A stretch of DNA of 64,000 nucleotides from Lachnospiraceae bacterium (GTDB lineage: Bacteria > Bacillota > Clostridia > Lachnospirales > Lachnospiraceae), in contig SVDN01000002.1 of NCBI GenBank assembly GCA_015057825.1, positions 16,044 to 80,043 of the forward strand, written 5' to 3'. Made by a program: the position numbers and the translations under genes. Shown here in pieces: positions 13,002 to 57,635 of this stretch. The notes under the pieces were generated by a model. The model made no database searches. It was not told where the DNA came from and saw nothing but the letters and a program-made list of their open reading frames with translations. Within the stretch, counting starts at the first letter, position 1, and the number at the start of each line of letters is the position of its first letter.

Positions 13002-13053
13002 ATAAAAAATGCGCCTCCAGGGGCTCGAACCCTGCACACCCTGATTAAGAGTC
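13002..13053. repeat. attL: att direct repeat (left): duplicated 3' 44 nt of tRNA-Lys plus 8 nt
   Basis: ataaaaaatgcgcctccaggggctcgaaccctgcacaccctgattaagagtc is identical to 57412..57463. The tRNA 5' half is absent here. Confidence 0.85.
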
Positions 13054-17940: not shown

Positions 17941-18041
17941 CGCGCTACGCGCGCGATGTTATTCTACGAATAACATAACGTTGTAATTCTTGACAGAATT
18001 ACAACTATATAAAAAAAGTATTAGGAAAGGAGAGCGAAGCG

Positions 18042-18480: not shown

Positions 18481-19410
18481 ATGGAAAACAAAACACCTAG
18501 AATCATTGTGGGAGTCGATCACGGATTTAAAAACATCAAAACCGCGCATACACTTTTCCCTGCGGCAATCTCAGAAATAAAAACAAAACCGGAAAATCTT
18601 GAAGACATTTTGGAATACGATGGTAAGTTATATTCGCTTAACGGAGAACAAGTTTATTTTGTTGATACGCAAGACAAGACACAAACAGAGGATTATTATC
18701 TTTTAACGCTTGCGGCAATTGCAAAAGAAATGAAAGCAAGAAACCTTACCAAAGCAAATATACTTCTTGCAGTTGGTTTGCCTTTTAAATGGTTTGATAA
18801 ACAGAAAGATAACTTTAAAAACTATCTTATGAAAAATTCGGAAGTTGTTTTTAAGTTCGAGGGAAAACGATATGTAATTAGCCTTGAAGCATGCAAAGTT
18901 TTCGTACAAGGTCATTCTGCTATCGCGCCGAATATTAGCAAATACGCAGAGGGTCATTGTGTATTGGTAGATATTGGCGGCGGAACAATGGTTGTTCTCC
19001 CGATGTTTAAAGGAAAACCGCTTATTGAAGAATGCATGATTGATACCAAAGCATCTCTCCATCTTTATACAATGATTAAGCAACGCATAGAATCTGAATT
19101 TTACAACGAAATCAGCGATTACGACATTACAGAAGCTATCAATAGCGGTAAGCAATCAACAAATGACGAATACTTAAACATTATCCAGGAAGAGCTTGAA
19201 AAGTACTCAGAATACGTTTTCCGTCGCCTTAAAGAATTTCGTATTAACCTCGAAAGAACACCGGTTGTTTTTATGGGTGGCGGTTCAATGATTATTAAGA
19301 ATTTCGGTAGTTATAATGCCAACAAGACAAGCTTTGTTCTTGATCTTAATGCGAATGCAAAAGGATATGAATATATTATGCAGCAGATGCTGAAAAGAAA
19401 GAGGGGATAA
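18481..19410 (+). CDS. parM: ParM/StbA-type actin-like segregation ATPase
   Basis: Actin-fold phosphate motifs IVGVDHGFKNIK, VLVDIGGGTM, VVFMGGGS. 309 aa. Confidence 0.75.
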   Translation: MENKTPRIIVGVDHGFKNIKTAHTLFPAAISEIKTKPENLEDILEYDGKLYSLNGEQVYFVDTQDKTQTEDYYLLTLAAIAKEMKARNLTKANILLAVGLPFKWFDKQKDNFKNYLMKNSEVVFKFEGKRYVISLEACKVFVQGHSAIAPNISKYAEGHCVLVDIGGGTMVVLPMFKGKPLIEECMIDTKASLHLYTMIKQRIESEFYNEISDYDITEAINSGKQSTNDEYLNIIQEELEKYSEYVFRRLKEFRINLERTPVVFMGGGSMIIKNFGSYNANKTSFVLDLNANAKGYEYIMQQMLKRKRG

Positions 19411-19413
19411 TCT

Positions 19414-19737
19414 ATGAACGTAATATTCAGAGTTAACGAGGAAAAACATCCATTAATAGCGCAAATGCTTTCAAATCCTCAAACAGTTGGTTTTGATAGG
19501 AAAACGGATTTGATTATGGCAGCGCTCTATAAACTAGCTGATAAAGATAGGCTGGTTGAAAAACCCGAAGAAAAAATGCCAAAAGAAAAGGACAAAGCTC
19601 CAAAACCCTCAGTAAATAAAAAGCAAAAAAAGATAATTGAAGAAACAATTGAAGATGAAGAAAACTCAGTTCTTGAAGATCCGCTTGATGAAGAAGTAGA
19701 AAACATAAGTCTCTTTGATGAAATATATGGAAGTTAA
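19414..19737 (+). CDS. Possible ParR-like adaptor (RHH-like N-terminus, acidic tail)
   Basis: Position immediately after parM. N-terminal beta-strand-like VIFRVNEEKHPLIAQML. Acidic C-terminus. Confidence 0.35.
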   Translation: MNVIFRVNEEKHPLIAQMLSNPQTVGFDRKTDLIMAALYKLADKDRLVEKPEEKMPKEKDKAPKPSVNKKQKKIIEETIEDEENSVLEDPLDEEVENISLFDEIYGS

Positions 19738-19750
19738 TAACTGTAACCTT

Positions 19751-19879
19751 ATATCTCGGTGGCGGAATAGGTAGACGCAGGACCCCCTTACCTTTGCCGT
19801 AAGGGTCACGCAAAGAACGGCATGTAAGGTGCAAATCCTTACCCGAGATATTTAAAGGGTTCGATTCCCTTAGGCTTCT
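19751..19879 (+). ncRNA. tRNA-like structured element (98-nt tRNA-like unit plus a separate T-arm/acceptor fragment)
   Basis: ATCTCGG/CCGAGAT closing helix, Leu-type D arm TGGCGGAATAGGTAGACGC and two 6-7-bp hairpins with 7-nt loops. A perfect T arm follows: AAGGG-TTCGATT-CCCTT. Confidence 0.35.
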
Positions 19880-19910
19880 TTAAACACAATGAAAGGATGG
19901 ATTTATCAGC

Positions 19911-21394: not shown

Positions 21395-22525
21395 ATGAAT
21401 TTTGAATACTATTACAGCGAAGAATCGTCCCAATTTAAGCATTTATGCATACCTATGGATTTGTTTGATTCGCCTTATTTTGAGCATTTATCAAACGATG
21501 CAAGACTACTGTATAGCATTATGTTAGATAGAGTTAGCTTATCTAGAAAGAATGGGTGGGTCGATGATCAGGGAAGAGTATTTATCTACCTAACACTTGA
21601 AGAGGCATGCAAGAAAATAAAAGTAGGTTCTACTAAATGCGTAAAGATATTTGCCGAGCTTGATTCCGAAAAAGGAGTAGGATTGATAGAAAGAAAAAAA
21701 CAAGGTCAAGGAAGACCAACAAAATTATATGTTAAAAACTTCTGCAAAGTACTTTCTAAACTTGACGATAATTCTTCTGATTGCGAAAGTCTAAAAGGTG
21801 ACAAACCGGATGATGAATCTACTTTTGATACTGTAGAAGGCAGTAATAATCATAGATATTCCAGACTTACAAAAAATGAAAGTCTAAACTTTCAGAAAAA
21901 AAATCCCCCTAAATGCGAAAGTCTAGACTTACAAGAGAATCTCAGACTTTCGGAAAATGAAAGTCTAAACTTTCAATATGCGAAAGCAAACCATACTGAT
22001 ATTAACCATACTGAGTTATATAATTCAATCAATCAATCAAGTAATAATAATATATATATAAGCGAGCAGGAAGATGATCAATTGATTGACGAAAGGCAGG
22101 TTGATGAAACGCAAAGAATAATAAAAGCCAACATTGAGTATGACGATTATATGTCTGTTGCAACAATTAAAAACAAAGAGCTTTTCGATGATTTATATCG
22201 CATTATGGTTGATATTGTTTGTTTTAACCGGAAAAGCTTTACAGCAAGTGGTTGCGAAATACCGGCCAAACTTCTTCGTGCAAAATTTTTAAAGCTTAAA
22301 CGCCAAAATCTCGAATATGTAATTGAGAACTTGAACAGCGTAACTACAAAAATAACAAATATTTACTCATACCTGGTGGCGGCGTTATATTCCAGCGACA
22401 CAGCGATAAATGCTTATTGGCATCAAATGGTCCAGCATGATCTTTATGGCGATAAAACACAGTCTTTAAGCAGCAGCTTAAGCGGCACAGAAGAGCCGTA
22501 TATTGAATATAATAAGCTTGAGTAA
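21395..22525 (+). CDS. repA: Replication initiator, RepA_N family
   Basis: N-terminal FKHLCIPMDLFDSPYFEHLSNDARLLYSIMLDRVSLS...GLIERKKQGQGRPTKLYV matches the RepA_N winged-helix region. Repeat-rich central region. Confidence 0.8.
   Translation: MNFEYYYSEESSQFKHLCIPMDLFDSPYFEHLSNDARLLYSIMLDRVSLSRKNGWVDDQGRVFIYLTLEEACKKIKVGSTKCVKIFAELDSEKGVGLIERKKQGQGRPTKLYVKNFCKVLSKLDDNSSDCESLKGDKPDDESTFDTVEGSNNHRYSRLTKNESLNFQKKNPPKCESLDLQENLRLSENESLNFQYAKANHTDINHTELYNSINQSSNNNIYISEQEDDQLIDERQVDETQRIIKANIEYDDYMSVATIKNKELFDDLYRIMVDIVCFNRKSFTASGCEIPAKLLRAKFLKLKRQNLEYVIENLNSVTTKITNIYSYLVAALYSSDTAINAYWHQMVQHDLYGDKTQSLSSSLSGTEEPYIEYNKLE
21783..21990. repeat. Direct/inverted GAAAGTCTA(A/G)AC repeats inside repA (candidate oriV iterons)
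   Basis: 22-bp perfect repeat aaaatgaaagtctaaactttca at 21873-21894 and 21954-21975. Further gcgaaagtcta copies at about 21783 and 21915. Confidence 0.5.
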
Positions 22526-22536
22526 GGGGTGTAACA

Positions 22537-22878
22537 ATGCGAAAAAAAATATACCCTGAAGTATTTAAGCTGCGCCTTAAGGAATCAGACCGTCAAAAGT
22601 TAAAAAAAGCCGCTGCTGAAATAGGGATTACTGAAAGTCAGTACATAAGGCTTTTGATAAATCAGCCGCATATTAAACGCCTGGATCAGCAAAGTTATGT
22701 TGCTATTAAACGTTTGGTAAATGAAATTAACAAGATAGGTGTTAATATCAACCAGATCGCCAAAAACAACAACTCTCAGCTTTATTCGGAAATCGATAAG
22801 CGCGAGTTGTTCAAATATTTGAAAAGGCAAGATGAGTATGTGTATGAGTTTTTAAGCAAACTAAGAATGGAAAAATAG
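22537..22878 (+). CDS. mobC: MobC-family relaxosome accessory protein
   Basis: RHH-like N-terminus and GVNINQIAKNNN (MobC NxNQiA motif). Confidence 0.75.
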   Translation: MRKKIYPEVFKLRLKESDRQKLKKAAAEIGITESQYIRLLINQPHIKRLDQQSYVAIKRLVNEINKIGVNINQIAKNNNSQLYSEIDKRELFKYLKRQDEYVYEFLSKLRMEK

Positions 22879-27345: not shown

Positions 27346-28089
27346 TGTATATACAAAGCAAAAAAGACTTGTATATACAGAAAAATGCAGTAATAGTGCG
27401 TCGTTCAAGAGTTGTATATACGAAAGTGTATATACAAATGCGCCGGAAACAGGCTTTGTATATACAAAAACGTATATACAAAAATCGGGATTAAGCTTTG
27501 TATATACAAAAATGTATATACAAACTATAAAGCAAAAATTTGTATATACAAATGTGTATATACAAGAAAAGGCAGTGAAATTGCGCCTTGTAGCGGTCTG
27601 TATATACAGTTGGAAAATAATGGTGTATATACAAATTGAATTTGTATATACATAGGTTTAACAAAGTGTATATACAAAAAAACGCAGTAAAAATGCAAAG
27701 TACAGCAGTTTGTATATACAAAACCAGCTGAAATGTATATACGTTTTAGCGAAACAGGGGTCTTAGGGGAATTTTCCCCTAACAAGATGTATCTGTGGGT
27801 ACAGATGCGTATCTTGCAATACGAATAAAAAAGAAAAAAGCTGACAGCTATGGGAAAAAATAATTTGTATATACAAATATGTATATACAAAAGTGTATAT
27901 ACAAGCGAAAAACGTATATACAAATGTGCATATACGAACACTTGTTGTATATACAAAATGCATTTGTTAAAAATGTATATACAGGCTCAAAGCCTGTTAT
28001 TTCAAGGAATAGGGCACTTGTATATACAAATCTAAAAACAAAAAAATGTATATACAAAAACGTATATACAACATATGTTTGTATATACA
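27346..28089. repeat. Array of 27 TGTATATACA palindromes in two blocks (16 + 11) flanking a 120-bp core
   Basis: Counted by eye: 21 exact, 6 near copies. Eight pairs have exact 14-bp start-to-start spacing. No credible ORF. Confidence 0.9.
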
Positions 28090-41008: not shown

Positions 41009-41260
41009 CCACGCACCGACCAAAGTTTGTGATTATTTTTATTAATTAACATTTACTTTGAAAGGCTACCACTTACTAGGTAACTCTTTTTATATTTATA
41101 TGATAAATCATTATTATTTGATTGTCAATTTTTAACACAAAAAAGCCCGAGGCTTATTGGCATTGCTCGGGTCAAAAATCATGATATAAATACAAAAACA
41201 TATATTTGCTTTACAAATTTAAAAAAATGCTTTACAAATACAAAATAATGTGTTAAAGTT

Positions 41261-41270
41261 TGTATATACA
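41261..41270. promoter_or_regulatory. Solitary TGTATATACA (TTTGTATATACAAAA) site upstream of the orf-dinJ-like operon
   Basis: The only copy of the array motif seen outside 27346-28089. Lies 18 bp before the ATG at 41288. Confidence 0.5.
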
Positions 41271-41287
41271 AAAGGAGAGTGATATAT

Positions 41288-41545
41288 ATGGTACAAGTTA
41301 TTTATCGTTACAAAAAATTGAGATTTGCAGATGAATTTGCAATCATGTACAAAGCTGTCAGAGGAATAAGATTGGAAGATGACATTGCAAATGTTATTGA
41401 CAGATCTTATTCAAGCAAAGCAGAATATGTCAGATCAACATCGGAAGAAATTGTAAAAAGAATTTCTGACGAGTTGTTTTTGCCGGCCGTAATTTTTAAG
41501 AAAAAATATGGCTTGGAAGAAAGCTTTTTACAGAAAGCAGTATAA
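41288..41545 (+). CDS. Hypothetical protein (85 aa)
   Basis: ATG 8 nt after AGGAGAG. No motif recognised. Confidence 0.4.
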   Translation: MVQVIYRYKKLRFADEFAIMYKAVRGIRLEDDIANVIDRSYSSKAEYVRSTSEEIVKRISDELFLPAVIFKKKYGLEESFLQKAV

Positions 41546-41562: not shown

Positions 41563-41802
41563 ATGGCATCGATTAATGTAAGAGTTGATGACAAGATAAA
41601 AGAAAAGGCGGAAGCAGCGCTTAATGAAATGGGGCTTAACATTTCTTCCGCTATTACAATGTATCTTGCAAAAATTGGAAATGAAGGAAGAATTCCTTTT
41701 GAAATCGAAACGATTGATGCAAAAAGAAACCGCGAGGAGCAGGCCCGGCGTTTCAACGCTTATGCGGAAGCGATTGGTAAGTTACAAAAACCGAATGAAT
41801 AA
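41563..41802 (+). CDS. RelB/DinJ-family RHH protein (orphan antitoxin-like)
   Basis: MASINVRVDDKIKEKAEAALNEMGLNISSAITMYL matches the DinJ/RelB N-terminal RHH. No RelE/YafQ-like gene follows. Confidence 0.7.
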   Translation: MASINVRVDDKIKEKAEAALNEMGLNISSAITMYLAKIGNEGRIPFEIETIDAKRNREEQARRFNAYAEAIGKLQKPNE

Positions 41803-41850: not shown

Positions 41851-41908
41851 AAAAAATAAAAATATTGTCGCGCGCGCAATTTACTTTTGTATATTGTGCA
41901 AATAAAAT
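41851..41908 (+). promoter_or_regulatory. Conserved ICE promoter module copy 5
   Basis: aaaaaataaaaataTTGTCGCGCGCGCAATTTACT. TAAAAT at 41903, 32 bp after TTGTCG (41865). Confidence 0.6.
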
Positions 41909-49756: not shown

Positions 49757-49759
49757 AAT

Positions 49760-50551
49760 ATGGGCAAGTTTATAAAAGAGTATAGTGCCGTTGCAGTCGC
49801 AGTTATTGTTTCAATATTTATATTGATAGCGGCAACCAACGCATCAAAGTCTGTTAGCAACGTATCTGAAAAACAGACGGCTGCGCTTGAAAACAATGCT
49901 GCGGCTTGGCAGGTTGGTGATTCTGCAGATTTTGAAACTGTAGGAGAACTTACAGACGTAGAACAAACACAGTTAGATGCAATGCAAGCCAAGTTGGATG
50001 CAATGCAAGAGCAAATAGATAACTTTGAAGGATTTGACTTGGATAAAGCTTATCCTATTGGTTCAATTTACATTACTATGTCTTCAGCAGATCCCGCAGA
50101 TCTTATGGGTGGAACCTGGGAAAGAATGGAAGACAGAGAGTTAATTGGAGCCGGTAATCTATATACTGTTGGAAGCGAGCAAGGTAGCAGCTCCGTTAAG
50201 TTGGCAGCTACGCAGATTCCTTCTTTATCGGTAAGTGGCAGTACCAATAGTGCCGGAGCACATACTCATGTTATTGGTATGGGACCTGCCAAATGGAATT
50301 ATGGCAGTCAAGCCTGGTATTCTGATACTGTAGGGCCACCAAACCAACTTTTTGCGCCATATGGATATGGTATGGGAAGTGGTGGTCCAACAACACACGC
50401 AGGTTATTATAACCAATCAAATGGTACAAGTACATATTCTTCCGGGACTCATACACACACAGTAACAGCAAAATATACAAACAACAATCAAACATCGGTC
50501 AGTGTAATGGATCCAACCATAGCAGTTTACATGTGGAAGCGTGTTGCCTAG
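49760..50551 (+). CDS. Membrane/pilin-anchored protein with phage tail-collar-like receptor-binding domain, copy 1
   Basis: N-terminus MGKFIKEYSAVAVAVIV (G-x4-EY + hydrophobic helix). C-terminal YPIGSIYITMSSADPADLMGGTWERMEDRELIG and HxH motifs (AHTHV, THTHT), as in Gram-positive phage tail fibre/collar proteins. Confidence 0.6.
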   Translation: MGKFIKEYSAVAVAVIVSIFILIAATNASKSVSNVSEKQTAALENNAAAWQVGDSADFETVGELTDVEQTQLDAMQAKLDAMQEQIDNFEGFDLDKAYPIGSIYITMSSADPADLMGGTWERMEDRELIGAGNLYTVGSEQGSSSVKLAATQIPSLSVSGSTNSAGAHTHVIGMGPAKWNYGSQAWYSDTVGPPNQLFAPYGYGMGSGGPTTHAGYYNQSNGTSTYSSGTHTHTVTAKYTNNNQTSVSVMDPTIAVYMWKRVA

Positions 50552-50826: not shown

Positions 50827-51097
50827 ATACTGTTATCCTAACTCAGATGTTTTAAAAAACAAGTTAAACATTAGAAACTCAGAAGATTTATATGAGGCAG
50901 AAAAAGAACTGACATTAATTCGAATAAAGGAGCTTCAAGCGCGTCCGCTGATGGGAAAATTTGACTTTCAGCATTTAAAAAATATCCATAAATATATATT
51001 TCAAGATTTATATGAATGGGCTGGTGAGGTCAGAACTGTTGAAATTGGAAAAGGCAATCTTTTTTGTACAACAGCATGTATAAACGAATACGCTAAA
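50813..51097 (+). pseudogene. 5' fragment of a class I fic (FicT/VbhT-like) gene, fused in frame to tail-collar copy 2
   Basis: YCYPNSDVLKNKLNIRN...IHKYIFQDLYEWAGEVRTVEIGKG is the Fic N-terminal region. The ORF never reaches an HPFxxGNGR motif. Confidence 0.6.
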
Positions 51098-51889
51098 ATG
51101 GGCAAGTTTATTAAAGAGTACAGTGCTGTTGCAGTCGCAGTTATTGTGGCAATAATAATATTGATAGCGGCAGGTAACGCATCAAACTCTGTTCGTAACT
51201 TATCTGAGAAGCAGACAGCAGCACTTGAAAAAAATGCTGCGGCTTGGCAGGTTGGGGATTCTGCAGATTTTGAAACTGTAGGAGAACTTACAGACGTAGA
51301 ACAAACACAGTTAGATGCAATGCAAGCCAAGTTGGATGCAATGCAAGAGCAAATAGATAACTTTGAAGGATTTGACTTGGATAAAGCTTATCCTATTGGT
51401 TCAATTTACATTACTATGTCTTCAGCAGATCCCGCAGATCTTATGGGTGGAACCTGGGAAAGAATGGAAGACAGAGAGTTAATTGGAGCCGGTAATCTAT
51501 ATACTGTTGGAAGCGAGCAAGGTAGCAGCTCCGTTAAGTTGGCAGCTACGCAGATTCCTTCTTTATCGGTAAGTGGCAGTACCAATAGTGCCGGAGCACA
51601 TACTCATGTTATTGGTATGGGACCTGCCAAATGGAATTATGGCAGTCAAGCCTGGTATTCTGATACTGTAGGGCCACCAAACCAACTTTTTGCGCCATAT
51701 GGATATGGTATGGGAAGTGGTGGTCCAACAACACACGCAGGTTATTATAACCAATCAAATGGTACAAGTACATATTCTTCCGGGACTCATACACATACAG
51801 TAACAGCAAAATATACAAACAACAATCAAACATCGGTCAGTGTTATGGATCCAACCATAGCAGTTTATATGTGGCAGCGTGTTGCCTAG
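51098..51889 (+). CDS. Tail-collar-like protein, copy 2 (may be translated alone or as a Fic-N fusion)
   Basis: Same 263-aa architecture as 49760..50551. The internal ATG 51098 aligns with the copy 1 start. Confidence 0.55.
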   Translation: MGKFIKEYSAVAVAVIVAIIILIAAGNASNSVRNLSEKQTAALEKNAAAWQVGDSADFETVGELTDVEQTQLDAMQAKLDAMQEQIDNFEGFDLDKAYPIGSIYITMSSADPADLMGGTWERMEDRELIGAGNLYTVGSEQGSSSVKLAATQIPSLSVSGSTNSAGAHTHVIGMGPAKWNYGSQAWYSDTVGPPNQLFAPYGYGMGSGGPTTHAGYYNQSNGTSTYSSGTHTHTVTAKYTNNNQTSVSVMDPTIAVYMWQRVA

Positions 51890-57411: not shown

Positions 57412-57463
57412 ATAAAAAATGCGCCTCCAGGGGCTCGAACCCTGCACACCCTGATTAAGAGTC
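57412..57463. repeat. attR: att direct repeat (right), overlapping the intact tRNA-Lys 3' part
   Basis: Identical 52-mer to 13002..13053. Confidence 0.85.
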
Positions 57464-57492
57464 AGGTGCTCTACCAAATGAGCTAGAGGCGC
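57420..57492 (-). tRNA. tRNA-Lys (anticodon CTT)
   Basis: Reverse complement folds as GCGCCTC-TA-GCTC..GAGC-A-CCTGA-CTCTTAA-TCAGG-GTGTG-CAGGG-TTCGAGC-CCCTG-GAGGCGC-A. 73 nt. Confidence 0.9.
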
Positions 57493-57635
57493 AAATCAAA
57501 TTAGCAAATGTTATTATATGATAAAGGGTCAAATAATGCAAGCACTTTTTTAGATTTTATGATATATTAATATTGTTAGACTTAATCTTAAAAATAATTC
57601 GGCAAAGGGCCGATTTTTATATTTCGGAGGAGAAA

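Follow-up and report, generated by a model that had tools for sequence, protein, structure and literature searches.

A predicted transfer origin embedded between two blocks of palindromes in an integrative and conjugative element from a Lachnospiraceae genome

Transfer origins (oriT) accompanied by arrays of sites for accessory or regulatory proteins are already known, as in the StbA/stbDR, TraK and TraM systems. TraM (on sbmA-C) and TraY of F-like plasmids and NikA of R64 are ribbon-helix-helix proteins that occupy repeats beside the nick site (nic) and shape oriT for the relaxase; those relaxosomes have a handful of sites, all on one side of nic. The locus considered here is different in scale and layout. 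It lies in a 44.4-kb integrative and conjugative element (ICE) of a Lachnospiraceae metagenome-assembled genome (MAG), at 13002-57463 of the 64-kb stretch of DNA that was analysed (the window, to which all coordinates refer unless a related locus is named). Between the stop codon of the relaxase gene and the phd-PIN operon of this ICE is a 744-bp intergenic region (27346-28089) with 27 palindromes in two blocks, and the 122-bp core between the blocks is, by alignment with related elements, the predicted oriT. We consider it probable that the region as a whole is an oriT region flanked by a platform for an ICE-encoded ribbon-helix-helix protein. What is new is a nick site embedded between two blocks totalling 27 palindromes and, across the family, element-specific arrays beside a conserved oriT; the nature of the likely binder, an orphan repressor of the toxin-antitoxin type or a ParR, would be new as well. 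To our knowledge, no system approaching 27 identical palindromes that flank nic on both sides has been described.

The closest analogue appears to be the StbA/stbDR system of R388, whose StbA has a homologue in TraK of RP4. Two sets of five 9-bp repeats beside the R388 oriT, with further copies in other promoters, are bound by StbA. This protein restrains conjugation and positions the plasmid; without it, transfer rises 50-fold and the plasmid becomes unstable (PMC3098194). The present ICE shares with R388 the sets of repeats beside oriT and a copy in another promoter. In R388, however, the 2 x 5 direct repeats of 9 bp have a period of 11 bp and surround the stbABC promoter, all on a single side of oriT; the ICE has 16 + 11 palindromes on a 14-bp lattice and on both sides of nic, and its candidate binders are ribbon-helix-helix proteins. 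No StbA/TraK-type match was found among the 40 ICE proteins scanned against Pfam, a set that does not comprise every open reading frame (ORF), and no search was aimed at StbA itself. Another comparison is offered by omega of pSM19035, a ribbon-helix-helix protein that sits as a dimer on runs of 7-10 short repeats in several promoters, serves both as a global repressor and as a centromere-binding protein, and has its gene alongside those of a toxin-antitoxin pair. Unlike the array described here, those of omega are made of 7-bp heptads in promoters and not at oriT, and the partner is a ParA-type ATPase.

An exact search for the 10-bp palindrome TGTATATACA returned 22 copies in the window, 21 of them within 27346-28089 and one at 41261, against a mean of 0.03 in dinucleotide-preserving shuffles. 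At up to one mismatch there are 30 sites in the window (2.73 expected), 26 of them within 27346-28089; with the two-mismatch site TGCATATACG at 27927 the array comes to 27 sites, of which 21 are exact and five have one mismatch. A first-pass annotation of the same DNA had claimed these 27 palindromes, 21 exact and six degenerate, in blocks of 16 and 11, and the recount bears these figures out. Most of the start positions that it gave were also correct, with five placed one base too low (27370, 27413, 27427, 27457 and 27471 are the true starts), and its judgement that the number and density of sites go beyond textbook examples seems fair to us. The perfect 12-mer TTGTATATACAA occurs 10 times in the array and once more at 41260. 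The sites are oriented: an A stands 3′ of the palindrome at +1 in 22 of the 27 and at +2 in 20, whereas a T stands 5′ of it in only 12.

The left block holds 16 sites (27346-27743, + strand) on a 14-bp lattice and lies 5′ of the first inverted repeat of oriT, where the arrays of related elements also sit; the right block holds 11 sites (27866-28089, + strand), lies 3′ of the nic-like motif and has a counterpart in none of the relatives examined. Eight neighbour pairs have a start-to-start spacing of exactly 14 bp, as had been reported, and 12 of the 27 sites are without a neighbour at that distance. Four doublets in the left block (27413/27427, 27457/27471, 27499/27513 and 27541/27555, + strand) repeat at 44, 42 and 42 bp. 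The earlier description of doublets every 42-44 bp is thus accurate, but its reading of this interval as about four helical turns is not: there is no 10.5-bp phasing (resultant 0.15, p ~0.7), the left-block register follows the 14-bp lattice (resultant 0.72 at period 14, a value reached by 0 of 5000 random placements), and the 42-bp recurrence is simply 3 x 14.

Several trivial origins of such an array could be set aside. Four contigs agree at 100% identity over 1097 bp spanning the array, and two further contigs agree wherever they cover it, the samples coming from Logan, JGI and ENA; an assembly artefact was rejected on the strength of this identity in six independent assemblies. Gene callers applied to other assemblies place ORFs of 47-95 aa in the array, all within the motif-repeat stretch and with zero family matches in Pfam, and since these motif-derived ORFs are the only ones, a coding region was rejected too, in agreement with the earlier view that no credible ORF lies between relaxase and phd. 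A known RNA was discounted because Rfam yields just two tRNAs across the window, and a host regulon because the flanking chromosome (19.5 kb) shows no enrichment of the motif.

The gap between the blocks (27744-27865, + strand) had been noted as a repeat-free core of 120 bp; it is indeed free of repeats and measures 122 bp, and what had been missed is its resemblance to a transfer origin. Loci of related elements were fetched via homologues of the relaxase and of VirB4 at 30-43% identity, and in seven of them (L002, L271, L272, L273, L275, L276 and L278) the DNA just upstream of nikA-relaxase aligns with 27755-27826; it is because of this alignment that we assign the core as the predicted oriT of the ICE. 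The alignment of the eight elements has 28 invariant columns, including TTAGG..C.C.TAAC and TGCGTATCT.GC, and all of the fetched relatives share a common plan, which runs from GGT.TTAGGGG...CCCCTAAC through AAGA and a second inverted repeat to an invariant GCGTATCTTGC. In the window the plan is represented on the + strand by inverted repeat 1 (IR1, TTAGGGGAATTTTCCCCTAA, 27763-27782, followed by CAAGAT), inverted repeat 2 (IR2, 27789-27796 and 27801-27808) and the nic-like motif GCGTATCTTGC (27807-27817). The first hairpin, TTAGGGG..CCCCTAA, is conserved across the family, and IR2 differs in sequence in every element yet remains self-complementary, CAAGA/TCTTG becoming CCGGA/TCTGG in L276. As single-stranded DNA the core folds well (z = -3.5). 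Moreover, when the relaxase-array region was searched against plasmids, the single match was pRUMAL01 of Ruminococcus albus, in which the 41 bp of 27755-27795 recur at 92.7% identity directly upstream of the mobC-relaxase genes.

The ICE encodes both a cognate relaxase of the MOBP type (PF03432; 25951-27342, + strand), the stop codon of which precedes the first palindrome by 3 bp, and a NikA/MobC-like relaxosome accessory protein of the ribbon-helix-helix class (22537-22878, + strand). The relaxase has TraI/MobA(P) as its nearest NCBIfam model, and GCGTATCTTGC resembles the RP4-type nick motif, YATCCTG^Y (the caret marking the cut); because of these two likenesses we infer a nick between G27816 and C27817, that is, at GCGTATCTTG^C. 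Since the core is homologous to the oriT beside nikA-relaxase in seven relatives, the comparison with an extended relaxosome platform, one of three that the first-pass annotation had drawn, has gained support.

Similar arrays were sought in the related elements, and five of the seven carry one beside oriT, directly 5′ of IR1 and thus in the position of the left block. These arrays are smaller, with ~3-6 units on one side only, and each has its own motif: six GTGTAT-N8-ATACAC units at a 31-bp spacing in L002 (8740-8940 of that locus), about five GAGTGA-N8-TCACTC in L272 (9300-9490), three TGGCATCA-N12-TGATGCCA in L275 (1086-1232), TTCTAGTT and AACTAGAA in L276 (700-870), and CTATGAAA and TTTCATAG in L278 (985-1160). 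No array was found beside the oriT of L271 or L273. Compared with its relatives, the window array has a compact 10-bp palindrome, far more copies and the extra block 3′ of the nick motif; the arms of L002, TGTAT and ATACA, are the two halves of the window's palindrome held 8 bp apart. The motifs of the relatives' arrays showed no convincing recurrence elsewhere in their 22-kb loci. Within each element the units are alike, and recognition by a protein is therefore favoured; the pattern points to a distinct, element-specific protein as the probable reader of each array. The fetched loci of the array-bearing relatives show no genes for RepA_N, ParM or RelB-like proteins. In L278 the second oriT hairpin (1215-1236) reads GCATTTTGTATATACAAAATGC, with the window's palindrome at its centre, which may be a coincidence. 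Three Clostridia plasmids, namely pRUMAL02 (L283) and those of Monoglobus (L284) and Subdoligranulum (L286), have the order parM, parR-like gene, short repeats, oriT, mobC and relaxase in common, which suggests that actin-type partition is functionally linked with the transfer origin.

The only copy of the motif remote from the array is a perfect 14-mer, TTTGTATATACAAA, at 41259-41272 (+ strand), in operator position in the promoter of an operon that encodes a RelB-like protein. Its first base is the last of the -10 hexamer of the promoter TTTACA-17-TAAAGT (41231-41259), it takes in the +1 position, and 3 bp separate its end from the ribosome-binding site; this is the classical arrangement of an autorepressor. 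Behind it lie an 85-aa ORF (41288-41545, + strand) and the gene for a 79-aa ribbon-helix-helix protein of the RelB/DinJ family (41563-41802, + strand), our top candidate for the array-binding protein. The latter scores 62.2 bits with TIGR02384 RelB_DinJ (curated cut-off 45.65) and is identical to Escherichia coli RelB at S3, N5, R7, K13, G24 and S28, residues that in E. coli RelB contact DNA or position the contacts (PMC2812701). The E. coli operator relO has half-sites TTGTAATTACAA and TTGTAATGACAT, built on the hexad (A/T)TGT(A/C)A, with the centre of the site less critical (PMC2812701). The 12-mer TTGTATATACAA matches TTGTAATTACAA at 10 of 12 positions, differing in the central two bases, and TTGTAT/ATACAA fits five of the six positions of each relO hexad, with the mismatch at the position reported to be least critical. 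The ICE system has the protein family and the contact residues in common with RelB-relO, and seems also to have in common a 12-bp palindrome that overlaps the protein's own promoter. It differs from relO, in which two 12-bp sites abut and RelE is required as co-repressor, in that it lacks a RelE-like toxin, spaces its sites 14 bp apart and has 27 extra sites 13 kb from the gene, around oriT.

No RelE-type toxin was found in the RelB-like operon, which ends in a terminator 3′ of relB and offers the 85-aa ORF as the sole partner. That ORF had zero homologues other than itself among 1.84 billion representative proteins and zero family matches; it could encode a new toxin or partner, or not be a genuine gene. 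A search for homologues of the RelB-like protein gave just one copy, 99% identical, a scan of genome contigs for closely related proteins found nothing, and scans of viral contigs for the RelB-like protein and for ParM were likewise empty. Two plasmid homologues are consistent with such an operator: in the one from Enterococcus faecalis, which keeps the N-x-R strand, the promoter palindrome contains TGTATAC, and the one from Persephonella, with S replacing N, has TTGCAA repeats.

The mechanism that we favour can be stated as follows. Each 10-12-bp palindrome would bind one dimer of a small ribbon-helix-helix protein. The likeliest such protein is the RelB-like one (41563), and it would in addition act through 41259-41272 as the repressor of its own operon. 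Dimers that bind cooperatively on the 14-bp lattice could then coat ~400 bp on the left of oriT and ~220 bp on its right, and this coat would decide, with a negative or a positive effect on transfer, whether the relaxosome assembles and the adjacent MOBP-type relaxase cuts at GCGTATCTTG^C; it might bear on segregation as well. Transcription running out of the relaxase operon towards phd-PIN and the type IV secretion genes would further be blocked by the coat. From the relaxase stop to the phd promoter (28183) the + strand showed neither a promoter-like nor a terminator-like site, and for that reason the bound array is predicted to separate the relaxase operon from the downstream transfer genes. 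A more elaborate version, which we regard as possible but rather speculative, has the RelB-type antitoxin, the ParR adaptor, or both in competition occupy the array, so that its occupancy would switch the element between a held and segregated circle and hand-over to the relaxase and the type IV channel; a toxin-antitoxin repressor would then have become the master switch of conjugation.

For the identity of the binder, the RelB-like protein is our leading prediction, put forward tentatively and at a little under even chances; the ParR-like protein is a possible but doubtful choice, a protein other than those discussed here a fainter prospect, and the NikA-like protein unlikely. Several points weigh against assigning the array to the RelB-like protein. 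The palindrome is a generic operator of AbrB-type VapB, BrnA, MarR and several ribbon-helix-helix families, and for this reason the motif alone does not name the binder. In many genomes TGTATATACA, often in 14-bp doublets, precedes genes for AbrB-type VapB, BrnT-BrnA, MarR and small ribbon-helix-helix proteins. Seven other ribbon-helix-helix proteins associated with TGTATATACA have S, I or L two residues before the arginine and never N, and the strand of the ParR-like protein, NVIFRVN, is closer to two of these strands (SILFRVS and SIILRVP) than is that of the RelB-like protein. Known RelB proteins occupy two to four sites, not 27, and those of E. coli abut at 12 bp as against the 14-bp spacing here. 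The lack of a RelB-like gene in the fetched loci of the array-bearing relatives counts in the same direction, and the relatives' arrays may be bound by a family-conserved protein such as the NikA-like one. Finally, the array was identical in every copy recovered, which leaves no co-variation of protein and motif to draw upon.

Wider scans for the motif were of limited help here. Arrays of up to 10 sites stand directly upstream of small ribbon-helix-helix genes at seven loci (L081, L225, L179, L134, L029, L043 and L228), a point in favour of a ribbon-helix-helix binder, and arrays of 5-17 sites occur in viral contigs, with longer ones in metagenomic contigs, several of them 5′ of ribbon-helix-helix genes (L081/L225/L179, L134, L228); these viral and metagenomic loci contain zero relatives of any ICE protein. 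As guides to the binder, the scan of genome contigs was discarded because it returned mostly unrelated toxin-antitoxin and MarR operators, and that of metagenomes because it returned 115 unrelated tandem arrays, none of which encodes an ICE protein. A recognition code drawn from strand residues was also abandoned, as it fails to separate the RelB-like from the ParR-like protein. In dozens of genomes of Proteobacteria and others (loci L005-L124), doublets of the form GTATATACA-N5-GTATATACA lie directly 5′ of AbrB-type VapB genes (MxxAKVFxSGNSQAVRLPKEFR).

A different account, possible though clearly not our first choice, takes the array to be the parC centromere of the ParM/ParR pair, built around oriT: ParR would coat the blocks and ParM capture the complex, either to segregate an excised replicating circle or to deliver oriT to the mating channel, with 41261 as a ParR-regulated promoter. 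The parC of R1 and that of pSK41 lie at the parMR promoter and are built of 11-bp or 20-bp direct repeats; that of R1 also has two blocks around a core. The ICE resembles these type II centromeres in its closely set short repeats, in the two blocks around a core, and in encoding an actin-like ATPase (ParM-like, with ALP_N and MreB-like_C domains; 18481-19410, + strand) together with a ribbon-helix-helix adaptor, our second candidate binder. The latter is a ParR-like protein of 107 aa (19414-19737, + strand), its gene directly 3′ of the ParM-like gene, with the strand NVIFRVN and two helices at its N-terminus and a disordered acidic tail. It had zero matches in family searches, and its single-sequence AlphaFold model is of low confidence (predicted local distance difference test score, pLDDT, 58.6). 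No other repeat array in the ICE is fit to be a centromere; NVIFRVN resembles the strands of proteins encoded beside TGTATATACA arrays (SILFRVS in L134, SIILRVP in L081/L225); and in the three Clostridia plasmids noted above parM-parR lies directly upstream of oriT-mobC-relaxase, two of the three having short repeats 3′ of parR: that of Monoglobus with seven AAATCA/TGATTT repeats 3′ of parR, before a small ORF and oriT, and that of Subdoligranulum with two 19-bp direct repeats between parR and oriT. It also fits that R1 ParM and ParR stimulate the relaxase TraI (PMC4949242). Against this, the array is 7.6 kb from parR, its repeats are palindromic and its core is a predicted oriT rather than a promoter; the parMR promoter has a different inverted repeat, with no TGTATATACA within three mismatches; the extra site fronts the gene of another DNA-binding protein; the fetched loci of array-bearing relatives are without ParM; and no ParR homologue with a known site was found, plasmid and viral searches giving zero matches. 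The centromere analogy of the first-pass annotation thus retains its partition genes and the want of any rival array, and loses on distance and on the site-free parMR promoter.

The NikA/MobC-like protein (22537), our third candidate, or another transfer protein conserved in the family might instead bind the sites as an extended relaxosome scaffold, equivalent in role to the relatives' smaller arrays, the site in the RelB-like promoter being secondary. We judge this unlikely, even though the NikA-like protein is the sole sequence-specific DNA-binding protein common to the window and all relatives, the left block lies 5′ of IR1 as the relatives' arrays do, the predicted DNA-facing strand residues vary between elements as the array motifs do, and the arms of L002 are halves of the window's palindrome. 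Despite these common arms, L002 and the window differ in the strand (KLVRMS vs FKLRLK), and the residues of the strand fail to follow the motifs. Moreover, L271 and L273 encode NikA-like proteins and have no array, there is no site near the nikA gene, and NikA, where characterised, occupies one repeat beside nic and is not known to bind dozens of sites. Less probable still is that the array acts as single-stranded DNA, each 14-bp doublet of the self-complementary motif forming, in the transferred strand, a 10-bp hairpin with a 4-nt loop that would serve in priming or as a single-strand promoter in the recipient. Folding of the blocks is indeed much stronger than that of shuffled sequence (z = -8.4 and -11.9), inverted repeats make up the relatives' units as well, and the right block would enter the recipient first if the + strand is nicked. 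However, strong folding is automatic for any repeated palindrome, the 12 sites with no partner 14 bp away are left out, and the arm variants in L002 are not compensatory; folding needs no identical 10-mer 27 times and leaves unexplained the promoter copy 13 kb away.

Two further assignments were discarded. The iteron-origin analogy of the first-pass annotation does not hold: the array is 4.8 kb from the RepA_N gene (21395-22525), that gene has internal repeats of its own (21770-21975), and the fetched loci of array-bearing relatives show no RepA_N match. Nor is the array likely to be an operator of phd-PIN, as the nearest site ends 94 bp 5′ of the -35 hexamer (28183) and the promoter has its own CGAACGA/ACGAT repeats. 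An E. faecalis antitoxin does bind exactly TGTATATACA (PMC13034048). The Phd-like protein of the ICE has zero detectable similarity to any solved Phd/YefM and is without the K8/R10/N14 contacts of that E. faecalis 'Phd'.

The timing of ICE transfer in gut Firmicutes is poorly understood, and their oriTs are mostly unmapped. The present locus gives a precise predicted oriT for a family of ICEs in Lachnospiraceae and other Clostridia, and the IR1-IR2-GCGTATCTTGC signature is usable in annotation. Within that family oriT usually has an element-specific array beside it, and the present ICE is the extreme case, with 27 sites on both sides of nic; its candidate binders are named and lend themselves to purification. 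Should the orphan RelB-like protein prove to be the binder, the ICE would offer a clear case of a toxin-antitoxin repressor co-opted for the control of conjugation; should it be ParR, oriT would double as a centromere. Either way, vertical maintenance would be mechanistically tied to horizontal transfer, as with StbA in R388. More speculatively, the element-specific arrays beside a conserved oriT could amount to a general, so far undescribed layer of specificity or immunity in the ICEs of gut Clostridia.

The ICE itself is bounded by a 52-bp perfect direct repeat (13002-13053 and 57412-57463), the right copy of which is the 3′ part of a tRNA-Lys(ctt) gene (57419-57493, minus strand); the integrase lies at the left end. 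From there the order is tyrosine integrase, two small excisionase-like proteins, ParM-like, ParR-like, a DUF3991-Toprim primase, an XRE regulator and RepA_N; then NikA/MobC-like, Fic, HipA-like, the MOBP-type relaxase, the array, a Phd-like antitoxin with a PIN toxin, and DUF5688; then the coupling protein, VirB4, a cell-wall hydrolase and, after the 41261 site, the 85-aa ORF and the RelB-family protein. The VirB4 protein is identical to one on record from a Lachnospiraceae MAG.

Other repeats in the ICE are set down here as observations. The excisionase-like/parM/parR operon has in its promoter a perfect 26-bp inverted repeat, GTTGTAATTCTTGACAGAATTACAAC (17981-18006), that overlaps the -35 hexamer, and the arms of this repeat hold the RelB-type hexads TTGTAA/TTACAA, 12 bp apart. 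The 170-bp gap between the parR-like gene and the primase gene (19745-19880) holds a tRNA T-arm-like GGTTCGATTCCC; ARAGORN and Rfam gave zero matches in it, and its folding does not exceed that of shuffled sequence (z = -0.7). A GC-rich element of 33 bp, ATAAAAATATTGTCGCGCGCGCAATTTAC, is present in six copies (25695, 25893, 28912, 30064, 41856 and 53563), all intergenic and just 5′ of operon starts (relaxase, DUF5688, 30148, 41865 and 53572); the copy at 41856 is followed on its 3′ side by a promoter-like TTTACT-17-TAAAAT, and the element has the appearance of a regulator or promoter module used in common by these operons of the ICE. Last, a 300-nt direct repeat of 93% identity (49757-50056 and 51095-51394) and a 70-nt repeat (50568 and 51909) indicate that a segment has been duplicated within the cargo or accessory portion of the element.

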